Below are positions 972 through 58,749 of a stretch of 64,000 nucleotides of DNA, in pieces. The position numbers and the translations under genes are program-made. Below the pieces are notes generated by a model. The model did no database searches. It was not told where the DNA came from and saw only the letters and a list, made by a program, of their open reading frames with translations. The stretch is from Octopus vulgaris (Eukaryota), in assembly GCA_951406725.2 (NCBI GenBank), contig OX597818.1, positions 79,856,001 through 79,920,000 on the forward strand. The letters run 5' to 3'. How positions within the stretch are numbered: position 1 is the stretch's first letter; each line of letters starts with the position of its first letter.

Positions 972-1250
972 TGTAAATGTAATATGTGACAATTATTCGG
1001 TAGCCATGATAAACTCCGAGTTTCGGATGCCGAGGTGGAAATCCATGCCACCATCTCTTCAGTTATCCGACCATCGGAAAAATACTATGAAAAATGAAGA
1101 GATGGCAGCGTGGATTTCCACCTCGGCATCCGAGACTCGGAGTTTTATCGTGGCTACCGAATAATTGTCACATATTACATTTACAGATAAATTCCTCTAT
1201 TTACATAATATCGAGGTCTCTTTCATTCTTTCGTTATCTTACCATTTTTA
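972..1250. mobile_element. Fold-back (inverted repeat) mini-element with hammerhead motifs, PLE-terminus-like, in (TA)n
   Basis: Arms 972-1061 and 1095-1185 are reverse complements with a few mismatches. The right arm has about 65 nt of extra tail. (TA)n lies on both sides. Confidence 0.8.
1008..1067 (-). ncRNA. Type I hammerhead ribozyme-like motif
   Basis: The minus strand reads GATAA-CTGAAGA-GATG..CATC-CGAAAC-TCGGAGT-TTATC, with core boxes, stem I GATAA/TTATC, stem II GATG/CATC and stem III ACTC/GAGT. The cleavage-site nucleotide is ambiguous. Confidence 0.65.
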
Positions 1251-2368
1251 TCAATATATATATATATATATATATACGGTGGGCTTCCATTCAGTTTCTG
1301 TCAACCAAGTTCATTCACAAGGCATTAATCGACCCGGCTATAGTAAGAAGACAGTTACCGAGGGTGTCGCAGAATGAGGCTGAACCCGAAATCACGTAGT
1401 TACAAAGTTACCTTTTTTACCACACTGTATCTGCAACTATATATATATATACATACACACACACACACATATATATATATATATATATATATATATATAT
1501 ATATATATATATATATATATATATATATATACATATATATATATGTATACATGCAAACATACAAAATACGTAAGTGCGTATGTATATATATATTTATATA
1601 TATAAGTATGTATGTATATATATATGTATATATATATTTATATATATATATATATGTATATATATATATGTATATATGTATACACACATACCACATACGT
1701 ATGTATGTACGTACGTGTGTATACATGCACACACATATATACATATATGCATATATATACATACATATATATATACATATACGTATACATATATATATGT
1801 GTGTGTATGTATATATGTATATATATATATATATATGTATGTATATATACATATATGTATATGTATATATATATATATATATATATATATACGATAGTGT
1901 AAATGAAATGTGGATGTAGTAGCTACTTTGTGTAATTTCATCCCCCACAAGATAGTTGCGTTAATTTTGTATATCTCTGAAACCCATAACATTTCTTATA
2001 ACTTCCTTGTAAGGGTCAAACTGCGATAGGGACCAGATTGGGTCAAATAGTTTATGGTGATAATGAATGCCTGTACATTGTTGAAAGTTGTTTTACTCAC
2101 AAACATTGTTCCACTCCCCTTCGGTACTACATCTCGTCTGGGAACGCTTAGGTTTATTATTAACAGGACAGATATTTAAAACGTTTTGGGCTTGGTTTTT
2201 TTTTTTTATTTTTCTCTTCAAATGTAATACACATAAAAGCAATTAATAATCCCTTTTCTGGTGAGTGCTTTCTTGTGTTCCCTTGATAGGTTTTCCTTCA
2301 CAGCCCTAAAAGGAATATCCTGTAAATTTAAAAGTGTGATGATTGAGAAGTAGAAAAGCAGTTCGGCT

Positions 2369-2880
2369 ATAAAGAGAGGGGAGAGTGTCCGAGTGAGAGA
2401 GGAGAGAGCGCGTAAGAGAGTGGGAGGAAGAGTGTGTACGAGAGAGAGAAAGAGAAAAGAAAGAAAGAAAGAAAGAAAGAATATATGAGAGACTGAAAGG
2501 GAGAGAGGGAAAGGAGTGAATGCATGTACGAGAGAGAGAGGGGGGAGGAGAGAGAGAAAGTTACGAGGGAAAGTGTATGAAAGAGAGATAGAGGGGGAGA
2601 GTGTACAAGAGAGAGGTTGAAAGTGTGTGAGAGGGAAGAAGAAGGGGAGGAGGAGAGTATAAGAGTAAGAGTACGAGGGAGAGAGAGTAACGAGATAGGA
2701 GAGAGAGCATCCGAGTGAGAGAAGGGAGAGAGTGTTAGACAGAGAGAGAATGAATATACGAGAGAGAGAGAAGAAAGAGAATCAGTGTACAAGAGAGAGA
2801 AAAGAGAAGAAAAAGAACGAATGTACGAGAGATTGAAATGGTAAGAGAGAGGGAAGTAGGAGAAAGAGACAGACAGAAGT
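2369..2880. repeat. Degenerate purine-rich (GA) low-complexity tract
   Basis: Near-pure A/G plus strand with recurring gtacgagagag units. Confidence 0.85.
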
Positions 2881-3827
2881 CGGCTTTCGTTTTACGTACT
2901 AAGGCGTTTACAGTGAAACAAATTTAAAAGTACACTAAAAAATGGGCAGAGACACTGATAAAGCAAGCACCTGCATAGACATATCAACATTGAATTGTTG
3001 CCAATTGAAAAGGGTTACTCTTGTAATAATACACTATCAACAAAATTTAAAAAAAACGAAAAGCAAATAAAAAAAAAAAAAAAAATACGAAAATAAAAAC
3101 ATGAAAATGTTGCAATCAAAAAATTGTAGCATGCACTTATAAGCTAACTTAGACAATTATTTACAAGTATATAAGATTAAAATCATTTCTTTCTCAGGCG
3201 ACCGATTATTCTTTTTCACTAATTTTAGAGCTGACACATTTACTACCGTTGTATAGCTGTTATGGCAGCACTTGTCTTTAATATATTTTGTGTTATTATT
3301 GAATATCTTAAGTCTCCTGCAATATGTACATACATACATATATATATATATATATATATATATATATATATATATATATATATATAACTAAGAACATAGA
3401 ACAGCCTATGAACTTCTTAATTAGATACAAAAAATCAGTAAGTTTATAAAAAAGAAGAAAGAAAAAACTATATTTCTGTCAGATTTAACGGTCTCAAAAT
3501 AAAATATAGTTTATGACATCACAGCTCTGCTGCTGTTGTTGGTTGTTGTTGTTGTTGTTGTTGTTGTTGTTGTTCTTGTTGTTGTTGTTGTTGTTGTTGT
3601 TGTTGTTGTTCAACCCTTAGCCAATTCTGATTGAGCAAACCAATGATAATAAGATATTCTAGAAGTGCCCATCAAGTCTCTAAGGTACGACTACTGTACA
3701 TTATATTATGTGTCGTTTCCTTGTTAAGACAGTAGGAAGCGATTTTAAGGAGATTTATTCTATTTCTAATAGATTAAGAGACCGGGTAGCGAGTGGATTC
3801 TAATGTTGATACAAATATACACTTTTA

Positions 3828-3970
3828 GGCATATGTAAATTTTTCGAGAAGCGGACCGCATGAGACCTGGTTCAACATCAAGCATCAAGACAATTTTTAA
3901 TTTTTCCTAGGGCGTGCCATTCAGAAAGCTATGTTGGCCTCATGTTGCTCGAGGGCTGCTAGTTGCTCAT
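3828..3970. mobile_element. Possible hAT/Charlie-like MITE remnant
   Basis: The end ggcctcatgttgctcgagggctgctagttgctca resembles degenerate hAT-Charlie subterminal motifs. Confidence 0.35.
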
Positions 3971-4045
3971 AATAAAAGCAATACTATAAAGTTTATAGTA
4001 TTGCTATCGTTATTATCAACTAGCGGCAGCAACAACACCAGCAGT

Positions 4046-56081: not shown

Positions 56082-57034
56082 CTATATATATATATATATA
56101 TATATATATATATATATATATATATATATGTTTATGTATGTATGTATGTATGTATGTATGTATGTATGTATGTATGTATGTATGTATGTATGTATGTATA
56201 GGTGTGTGTGTGTACATACATACGCATATGAATCTACCTAACTATCTATCTGTCTACATCTATCTATATAGATAGATGCATATATATATATATATATATA
56301 TATATATATATAATAATGAATTCTTGCAAAATCATGAACGACAACTGTATAATGCACACCTGTGACATAATAGTAGAGCATCTATTACATAATAATTCCT
56401 AAAGATGTCGTGAGCTTAAGATTACCGCTCAATCCTAACACTGACATAAAGGCCAGTAAGATGATTATGCATACATACACACATGCATATATGTAGAGTG
56501 TGTGTGCATATGTGTGTATGTATGCGTGCATACGTATGTATGACAACTTAAATGATGGAAAACGATGTTGCTCTAAAGTTAGCATAGTAACCAAAAGCTG
56601 CTATCATTTCTTTAGTCTTCTGTATTGTCATCATTAACGCTTCAGTGCCGTATCATGGCCATTGTCATGGGTCATTTTACTGCTTCAGGTCACTCATGTA
56701 TATAGAGTTAGTTAGAAGAATAGATACATACATGAATACATACATATTTACATACAGACATGCATACATACATACATACATACATACATACATACATACA
56801 TACATACATACATATGTATTAACCAAAACCTGGATTATATCACTTCTACTAAGGTATCTGTCCGTATTCCAAATCCCTATTCTTTAACGTATTATCTATC
56901 TATCTATTTATATACATATATATATATATATATATAAATGAATATATATATATATATATATATATATATATATATATAAAAATAATATATATAAATACAC
57001 ACACATACATACGCATATTAATCTTTTATTTCAT

Positions 57035-57441
57035 TCTTTTATTCTTTTGCATGTTCCAGTCATTTGACTGTGGCCATGCTGGAGCACCACCTTTAGTCGG
57101 GCAAATCGACACCAGGACTTATTCTTTGTAAGCCTTGTACTTATTCTATCGGTCTCACTTGCCGGACCTGTTAGTTACGGGGACGTAAACACACCAACAT
57201 CGGTTGTCAAGCGATTGTGGGGGGACAAACAGACACAAACATATATAGACACACATACACACACATACACACATATTTATATACGAAGGACTTCTTCCAG
57301 TTTCCATCTACCAAATCCACTCACAAGGCTTTGGTCGGTCCAAGGCTATAGCAGACGACACTTACCCAAGGTGCCACGCAATGGGACTGAACCCGGAACC
57401 ATGTGGTTGGTAAGCATGCTACTTACCACACAGCCACTCCA
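57035..57441 (-). mobile_element. SINE family A, full length
   Basis: Colinear reverse complement of 45905-46358. Confidence 0.9.
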
Positions 57442-58148
57442 TGTACATATATACATATATATATATATATATTTATATGTGTTTGTGTGTATGTGTGTGT
57501 GTGTGTGTATCTGTATGTATGTATGTATGTATATATATATATATATATATATATATATATATATATATATATATATATATAATACAAAATGGGACAAGAA
57601 TGCAAAACATCCAGATAGACGATGCAAAGAAAACAATGACGGGTCATTCGGAGTTTTCTTTCCTCAGTCGAGTTCCAGATTATCTTCGCAATTTCGGCTG
57701 CACTCACACACATAAGTACCAGTTGAACACTGGGCTTGGTGTAATCAACTTATCCCCTTCACCGAAATTGATGGACTAGTGCCAAAATTTGAAATAAATT
57801 TATATAAATAAGGATAAGATCGTTATTTAAATATCGAACTTATCAAGTGGGCCAGCATGGGAATAAAAACCTTCAGAGGTAATAATTATATATATATATA
57901 TATATATATATATATATATATATATATATATATATATATATATATATATATATATATATACACATATATATTAATACGATATGAGTTAAAAACTTATAGT
58001 GTGCCTTCCAATGTTCCGTGTATCGGCTACTAAGTGTTATCATGCAGTAGAATTTCTGTTACCGGACAAAAATGTGGAAATCCGCAAATATCGATAGAGT
58101 ACATGCAAAAAAAAAAAATGTTAATACCAGAAGACGGATTGAACAAGT

Positions 58149-58342
58149 TTTATTACAAATCACTACAATTGTTTCAACGCCTCATTATCAGGTGTTAACT
58201 GCTGGTTGTTACGTATAGCTTACGCGCATGTATACAGTTGAGGTTGAATCATATTAATGCAATAATGTGTATAATATATTCAACATTCAACAATTAACAG
58301 CTGATAATGATGCATGAAACAATTATGATGATTTGTAATAAA
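58149..58342. mobile_element. Fold-back element with mirrored minimal hammerheads
   Basis: 58149-58200 mirrors 58292-58342. Minus strand CAC-CTGATAA-tgaggcgtt-GAAAC-AATT-GTA-GTG, with palindrome ACAATTGT. Confidence 0.7.
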
Positions 58343-58592
58343 TGCATATGTCAATGTATAGATAGATAAATAGATAAATAGATAGATAGATAGATAGATA
58401 GATATATAGATAGACAGATAGATAGATAGATAGATAGATAGATAGATAGATAGACAGAGAGATAGATAGATACAAACATACATGCAAACACATATGTATT
58501 TACGCATATCCATATGTACATACACACACACACACACACACACACACACATATATATATATATATATATATATATATATATATATATATATA

Positions 58593-58749
58593 TTGGAAGG
58601 TTTGGAGATGATGTACAGGTATTTTATATTAGAAGAAATGAGGTACTCAGAAAATCGGATGGTGTATATTTACAGATATTTATTATATACAAATAAATAT
58701 CTGTAATATAAACCATCCGATTTTCTGAGTACCTCATTTCTTCTAATAT
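58593..58749. repeat. Fold-back mini-element in (TA)n without an HHR core
   Basis: 58626-58684 mirrors 58692-58749. The left arm has about 33 nt of extra tail. Confidence 0.85.

Follow-up and report, generated by a model that had tools for sequence, protein, structure and literature searches.

How does a retroelement come to lie in a genome as a palindrome, with ribozymes pointing away from its apex and one arm longer than the other by a tail? The question is raised by a stretch of 64,000 nucleotides from Octopus vulgaris (GCA_951406725.2, contig OX597818.1, positions 79,856,001 to 79,920,000; hereafter the window), which is rich in TA microsatellites and in which self-BLAST located six palindromes, with arm identities of 85%, 83%, 99%, 95%, 70% and 93%. 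An earlier sequence-only reading had picked out all six, and had proposed that each insertion joins two short cDNAs primed at the same TA target from two positions near the RNA 3′ end, or else is one cDNA that snapped back. Each palindrome consists of two 3′ regions set head-to-head in a TA repeat, one ending at a short and the other at a long site, and in families A and C these belong to Hydra-clade Penelope-like elements (PLEs); we consider it likely that the two arms are cDNAs primed on the two strands of the target.

One short end and one long end

Each palindrome family has two fixed 3′ ends, the two most frequent positions holding 41 and 36 arms in family A and 96 and 108 in family C; across families the long site lies 33 to about 150 nt beyond the short site. 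When exact patterns with 70–100 nt between the anchors were counted genome-wide for family C, 742 of 749 matches (367 + 375) combined a short with a long end, one was short+short and six were long+long; four of the long+long loci were fetched, of which two are true and two carry a partial tail. Independent choice of start site would give short+long in about half of the cases and is excluded by the observed value of about 99%. Among long family C pairs (1–10 kb) the combination was found in 18 of 19, a twentieth fetched locus showing a single end.

The samples for families A, D, P and E are the best BLAST matches rather than random draws. Within them, short+long pairing was seen in 19 of 21 head-to-head calls for family A, the other two being one complex locus, together with three tiny short+long partners; in 20 of 20 pairs among 29 loci for family D (19 by script and L182 on reading), where ends were called by motif, since the AT-rich tail aligns to TA runs in BLAST; in seven pairs for family P, plus one with a partial tail; and in eight of eight head-to-head pairs for family E. 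Tail-only partners of 5–21 nt adjoin long short-ended arms at three loci (L044, L046 and L186). Orientation, scored by eye, is equally regular: in the first 100 of 5650 family C matches, neighbours at distances of up to 3 kb point away from each other in 28 cases and inward in one, and 21 position-ordered family C insertions comprise 17 fold-backs, three long insertions whose pairing is not settled and one solo arm.

The two arms of a palindrome often differ in how far they reach in the 5′ direction. Among 67 short family C palindromes (the first 67 of the 742) it is the short-ended arm that has the greater 5′ reach in 29 and the long-ended one in 15, while in 23 the two are equal; in two family A insertions (L196 and L202) the short-ended arm exceeds the tailed arm by 0.9–1.3 kb. 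Since a fold-back copy cannot exceed its template, this asymmetry makes it likely that the arms were templated separately. The junctions between the same 67 pairs of arms show an overlap of 1–4 nt in 48, are blunt in 8 and contain extra letters in 11. We also noted three-arm insertions, with a partial arm repeated at the apex (L048/L049 and L297).

A common 5′ stop in family C

Thirty position-ordered family C arms extend at least as far as the base immediately 5′ of ribozyme stem I. Thirteen of them stop exactly there, while the other 17 run at least 29 nt further, 16 of these by at least 170 nt. A stop at this base was scored by eye in 34 of 100 matches, and within the 67 palindromes it is shared by 35 short-ended and 30 long-ended arms. 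One perfect apex, on a self-complementary tetramer, is common to 22 of the 67 and turns up in four or more sequence subfamilies that each include long copies as well; a solo arm (L319) stops at the same base. The stop base is likely to be the start of the RNA. Penelope has an internal promoter within its pseudo-long terminal repeat, or pLTR (PMC2377424; papers cited here by PMC number are drawn on from the portions of their text available). An RNA begun in the upstream pLTR would keep both start sites within 70–140 nt of its 5′ end and, with the start sites so close to that end, both cDNAs could therefore run off and be joined, in a manner we liken to retroviral strong-stop DNA. Less firmly, the family C palindromes of 100–200 bp may arise by priming at the copy of the two sites near the RNA 5′ end. 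A guanine stands beside the stop in five of seven informative junctions with untemplated letters, some of them ambiguous, and hints weakly at a copied cap; the commonest near-perfect apices may be one-base errors. Reading the stop as a splice acceptor, YAG being present in all parents, is not preferred, because the arms often keep the AG and there is no upstream exon. In families A and D a hard stop was not found in our query-biased samples, their 5′ ends clustering 0–30 nt before the ribozyme.

Taking the two regularities together, we find it plausible, while stopping short of calling it probable, that integration depends on an asymmetric complex obliged to begin at the short start on one strand and at the long start on the opposite one, probably with a single RNA as template, that cDNAs begun at the 5′ copy run off the capped start, and that the resulting thousands of mini-palindromes map the transcription start and both starts of reverse transcription with single-base precision and seed tens of thousands of self-pairing RNAs, in a type of genome known for heavy editing.

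Mechanism and alternatives

From the ends, their pairing and their orientation, and from the open reading frames (ORFs) of the family A and C parents described below, we infer the following course of events. An enzyme of the element would cut both strands of the target and prime one cDNA at each cut end. One cDNA would start at the short site and the other at the long site, on uncleaved RNA, and each would extend toward the RNA 5′ end until it stalled, at a length between 5 nt and 3.4 kb. The free ends of both cDNAs would then be joined, often via an overlap of 1–4 nt. Two cDNAs from two fixed positions at one TA target, as first suggested from the sequence, thus fit the pairing in family C (742/749) and in four other families. 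Some details of that proposal need revision: the cDNAs are in some cases long, arms spanning 5 nt to 3.4 kb, and the primed positions, while indeed fixed, lie within the RNA and, in the L197 tandem, upstream of the next ATG, so that they need not be close to the RNA 3′ end. Its alternative of a single snapped-back cDNA is disfavoured, the short-ended arm often being longer in the 5′ direction than the tailed arm. Neither random ends nor the fixed terminal inverted repeats (TIRs) of a miniature inverted-repeat transposable element (MITE), the outcomes it named as refuting, were seen. The footprint of integration that it proposed is real and non-random, and is that of a PLE, although the architecture itself has already been published.

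A related idea, that one cDNA or antisense RNA folds back and self-primes an inverted copy, has been proposed, on an antisense template, for PLE head-to-head junctions (PMC3846280), and the frequent placement of family C apices on self-complementary tetramers (22/67) would suit it. However, a cDNA begun at the short site cannot give the tail, and one begun at the long site cannot give a short-ended arm that is longer 5′ than itself, as observed in 29 of 67 palindromes and in L196 and L202. Nor does self-priming predict an exact stop at the short site beside (TA)n, and we regard it as largely refuted already and very improbable. The short palindromes might instead form a non-autonomous lineage, in which a palindromic transcript serves as template and cDNAs pass the apex and anneal; this would account for the recurrence of one apex (22/67) and for a hard stop without invoking a transcript start. 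Against such a master copy, the apex is spread over four or more subfamilies, each with long parent-type copies that have their own upstream sequence, the solo arm L319 shares the stop, and a cap-like extra base is present in five of seven junctions. Two-site priming would still be required, and this explanation seems to us unlikely.

Two further possibilities were weighed. Fold-back DNA transposons of the MITE type, with TIRs and TA duplications, are likewise short, palindromic, TA-flanked and present in thousands of copies, but here arm length varies between 5 nt and 3.4 kb, a fixed tail sets one end apart from the other, and the coding capacity of long copies is for reverse transcriptase (RT) and GIY-YIG domains rather than for a transposase. 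Fixed TIRs at both ends and a uniform length, as expected of MITEs, were not found; for families A and C this origin is refuted, and overall we give it practically no credence. Duplication of single insertions by host repair, through hairpin-capped breaks at TA repeats, or by assembly error, draws some weight from a palindrome of host sequence with a TA apex at 15505–16226 and from the duplicated host flank within 16226–17043. No duplication of the flanks is seen at the other loci, where the arms terminate at two sites specific to the element, and both the short and long ends and the fold-back joints recur in contigs of independent runs, which leaves only a very slim chance for this as a general explanation; it may nevertheless account for the outer duplication at 16226–17043.

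Several observations weigh against the two-cDNA interpretation. Many arms of families A, D, P and E have no partner inside the fetched flank. Family B, which also has a ribozyme and TA targets, shows one end only and no head-to-head partner at any of 28 loci, 23 of which have the 5′ end in view, so that the constant fold-back geometry originally claimed holds for families A, C, D, P and E and is absent from this ribozyme family. The overlaps at apices could equally result from later central deletion or from hairpin sequencing error; the family C apex data come from palindromes with 70–100 nt between the anchors. In families D, P and E no RT/GIY-YIG ORF was found within 1.5 kb upstream, and the parent elements of these families and of the pair at 58149 were not reached. 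The window's own family A locus carries an extra inverted duplication that the model leaves unexplained. The putative empty site of 41146–41617 comes from a single contig, of the independent run X3, in which the flanks are joined by 65 letters instead of 472, as would be expected of an empty site. For these octopus families the proposed mechanism is a reading of sequence.

Should the X3 contig represent the empty allele, insertion or later events would have enlarged the DNA at 41146–41617 that does not belong to the element from 65 nt to some 190 nt, most of it TA. Family B itself (16762–16880 and 40776–40893; L003–L030) is young, with the core CCGACGA, a single fixed 3′ end and a long low-complexity upstream region.

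Relationship to Penelope-like elements

Judged by their sequences, families A (16532) and C (41264) are Hydra-clade PLEs, with ORFs predicted to encode RT and GIY-YIG domains, and the remaining palindrome families are likely to be PLE ends too. A family A parent (L197), reached by walking upstream, consists of two tandem 3.43-kb units, with an ORF of 710 amino acids at L197:3379–5508. The tandem junction carries, in this order, the ribozyme, the short end (3240), the long end (3312) and the ATG (3379), as in pLTR-forming copies. Such a tandem was found for family A only, no tandem junction being present among the fetched family C loci. The L197 protein has YRDD and VVY..YTG motifs, of RT and of a GIY-YIG domain at the C terminus respectively, RWK at residue 37 and DKT at 113; DKT is present in the family C protein as well, the N-terminus of which is out of view. 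A CxCX5C linker occurs in L135, L142, L194 and the family C copy L334, L197 having phenylalanine for the second cysteine, and the GIY-YIG-like motif is without the internal CCHH cysteines and has CxxC/CxH near the end (CKLC/CRH and CDLC/CMH). RWK, DKT, the linker, the cysteine pattern and (TA)n targets are described as marks of the Hydra clade (PMC8557442). The family A protein gave atlas matches of 0.97–0.99 to clusters with HTH_animal, GIY-YIG and RVT_1, and nothing useful in Pfam and PDB sequence searches. Long family C arms have a broken ORF upstream that is 35–49% identical to that of L197, and TA follows 85 of 91 short or long ends in family A and 224 of 224 in family C.

Families D, P and E behave as PLE ends, with two fixed ends at TA and, in D and P, a ribozyme. 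Family E resembles the Naiad clade, characterised by the absence of a hammerhead, a 30–40 nt tail, (TA)n targets and an N-terminal endonuclease (PMC8557442), in its lack of a hammerhead motif, its 33-nt tail and its (TA)n target, no ORF having been reached upstream. The short copies are head-to-head pairs or solos, unlike non-LTR retrozymes, which form head-to-tail tandem units each with a hammerhead (10.64898/2026.07.22.740005).

A Neptune-like ORF with RVT_1 and GIY-YIG at L346 was considered as the family C parent and rejected, being a separate insertion between the arms. This ORF (L346:4251–6569, minus strand) encodes DKG, a CX2CX4CXXC linker and a GIY-YIG core that contains cysteines, and is Neptune/Nematis-like. 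Some unusual copies were also met: a 6.7-kb, near-perfect family C palindrome (98%) with no spacer (L337, G000:C1:32139001–32146500); two near-full-length inverted family A copies (L195); and family A copies with internal 5′ inversions and no second 3′ end, which resemble LINE-1 twin priming (L205 and L211).

Hammerhead motifs and the position of the 3′ ends

Rfam reports no hammerhead at the gathering threshold, nor among the 150 of 500 weak matches listed, and the motifs therefore rest on our own minimal descriptor of a type I hammerhead with stems I–III, by which ribozymes and cleavage sites are predicted from sequence. It finds 29 motifs in 864 kb, against 0–2 in each of five shuffles, and opposite-strand neighbours in these 864 kb point outward in three of three cases. 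The ribozymes face outward because both start sites lie just 3′ of them. Measured from the predicted cleavage site, the short and long ends are about 37 and 110 nt downstream in family A, 21 and 92 nt in C, 42 and 110 nt in D, and 67 and 218 nt in P. Ribozyme cleavage thus sets neither 3′ end and, both ends being beyond the predicted site, the RNA template would be uncleaved. In family A the 5′ ends do not pile up at the predicted cleavage site, three starts lying within 5 nt of it; the family C sample is of a kind that could not reveal such a peak. No hammerhead motif was found within about 760 nt upstream in family E. Among 22 copies of family P (L214–L238) that were read, the core is CCGATGA in 16, CTGATGA in 4 and TCGATGA in 2.

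The palindromes of the window

Both ribozyme copies had been described as reading outward in five of the six palindromes. Each core that we find does read from the apex outward, while several copies are damaged or incomplete. The one-arm extensions noted at the same time are present, their bounds right within a few bases.

The first palindrome joins a family D short-ended arm (973–1078, minus strand; hammerhead motif at about 1008–1067) to a long-ended arm (1079–1254, plus strand), whose degenerate hammerhead has two core changes and which carries a 69-nt tail (1186–1254) followed by (TA)n. In the family P palindrome the short-ended arm (12885–13113, minus) has a motif at about 12937–12984 and the long-ended arm (13114–13504, plus) one at 13243–13290, each with one core change. 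Here no tail had been recognised; the right arm in fact continues past an internal TA run, which hides a tail of about 150 nt (about 13354–13504).

The family A palindrome pairs a long-ended arm (16532–16683, minus; hammerhead at about 16638–16676, with one core change) with a short-ended arm (16684–16762, plus; motif at about 16691–16729). Its 74-nt tail (16532–16605) is present as claimed, although it is not terminal and sits within the larger inverted duplication 16226–17043. The outer part of this, 16226–16531 (minus), is an inverted duplicate of 16730–17043. In it, 32 nt belong to the family A arm and 119 nt, identical at 119/119 positions, to a family B end, and the rest is (TA)n and host flank (116/120); it is possibly due to later rearrangement or assembly error. 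The duplications 15505–16226 and 16226–17043 abut and take in host sequence, the former with its apex within a TA run and outer arms 74/76 identical, and could reflect fold-back repair or assembly error.

In family C a long-ended arm (41264–41397, minus; hammerhead at about 41351–41398; 69-nt tail at 41264–41332) meets a short-ended arm (41394–41455, plus) that is 5′-truncated and begins inside the ribozyme core, with the first three core bases missing. Nearby, a family A long end consisting of the tail (41473–41563, plus) is preceded by 4 nt matching the reverse complement of the short end, and is likely a micro fold-back. The palindrome at 58149–58342 is old (70% arm identity), with a pair of degenerate, outward-facing hammerhead motifs, and the family E palindrome consists of a long-ended arm (58593–58688, minus) with a 33-nt tail (58593–58625) and a short-ended arm (58689–58749, plus).

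Elsewhere in the window, a further palindrome (28397–28736, arms 84% identical), in which the descriptor finds no ribozyme motif, is flush to TA on the left and has a 78-nt extension on the right. A solo hammerhead-like motif ends at a TA run (60970–61045, minus), older inverted repeats from other families lie at 26905–27408, 46863–46968 and 59856–60345, and on the minus strand are what we take, from motifs, to be the end of a LINE ORF2 (9368–10111) and a Tc1/mariner-like transposase fragment (10305–10904).

Frequency in the genome

Sixty evenly spaced 10-kb pieces (600 kb) contained 68 palindromes, 27 with TA runs on both sides and 41 without TA on one or both. Eighteen of the 27 are flush with TA on one side and extended by at least 25 nt on the other, three are flush on both sides and six are otherwise arranged; the layout of one flush and one extended side exceeds chance. 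In all 864 kb there are 24 extensions; their lengths span 32–180 nt, with 13 in the range 61–78 nt, and the layout is common to many unrelated families. Eighteen such structures in 600 kb correspond to about 30 per Mb or, by extrapolation, about 80,000 per genome, the assembly amounting to 2.8 Gb. They could add to the double-stranded RNA potential of octopus, reported to be high (PMC5625713).

Comparison with known systems

LINE-1 twin priming joins two cDNAs begun on opposite strands, by short overlaps; the second primer acts at a variable internal site, and the two pieces share no sequence overlap. The octopus palindromes are alike in having two joined cDNAs, and differ in that both starts are fixed and the same stretch is copied twice.

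The Hydra clade of PLEs with a C-terminal endonuclease was described by Craig et al. (2021; PMC8557442) and includes Hydra-1_Obim, of 2507 bp and with (TA)n targets. In the available text its members are generally shorter than 3 kb and have tails of 30–40 nt, whereas family A is 3.43 kb long, family C exceeds 5 kb, of which some 3 kb lie beyond the ORF, and the tails are 69–74 nt; Hydra-1_Obim itself was compared by its description. Inverted, 5′-truncated pLTRs with an optional tail at one end are known from PLE insertions (PMC8557442, PMC3846280), head-to-head inverted ends with a one-arm tail also from PMC8969392, and opposite-strand hammerhead pairs 100–700 bp apart from PMC4209133. This architecture, with its variable truncation, junction overlap and tail on one arm, is the one seen here. 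In those sources, as far as their text was available, the tail is optional or often at one end, in contrast to the near-obligatory pairing in 742 of 749 cases, and the hard 5′ stop that gives a class of mini-palindromes goes beyond what they describe.

The closest biochemical parallel is PAc, a Poseidon PLE from anole, which in vitro cuts both strands of AT-rich DNA and extends them (Frangieh et al., 2024; PMC11167929). Its tail lies between two internal RT starts, ribozyme cleavage is dispensable and a dimer is predicted. Two starts bounding a tail, an uncleaved RNA and extension on both strands would be shared with the octopus elements; the PAc starts lie inside the ORF, whereas those found here lie 68–140 nt upstream of the ATG, and a single insertion combines the two. 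The text of that paper available to us does not link the starts to inverted copies, using the word inverted once, for a reagent. We found no count of pairing and no link to a transcript start in the literature searched, which did not extend to older papers behind subscription, to the PMC8557442 sequence supplement or to Figure S2 of PMC11167929.

The architecture of the palindromes is therefore known; the pairing count and the family C 5′ stop are added here. The origin of inverted repeats and tails in PLEs is presented as an open question in the available text of PMC8557442. The near-absolute pairing and the hard stop sharpen this mechanistic question, and a short+long rule that holds at 99% argues against the published self-priming idea. 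Family A is young, its ORF is intact and both of its start sites are mapped, and so the mechanism is directly testable.

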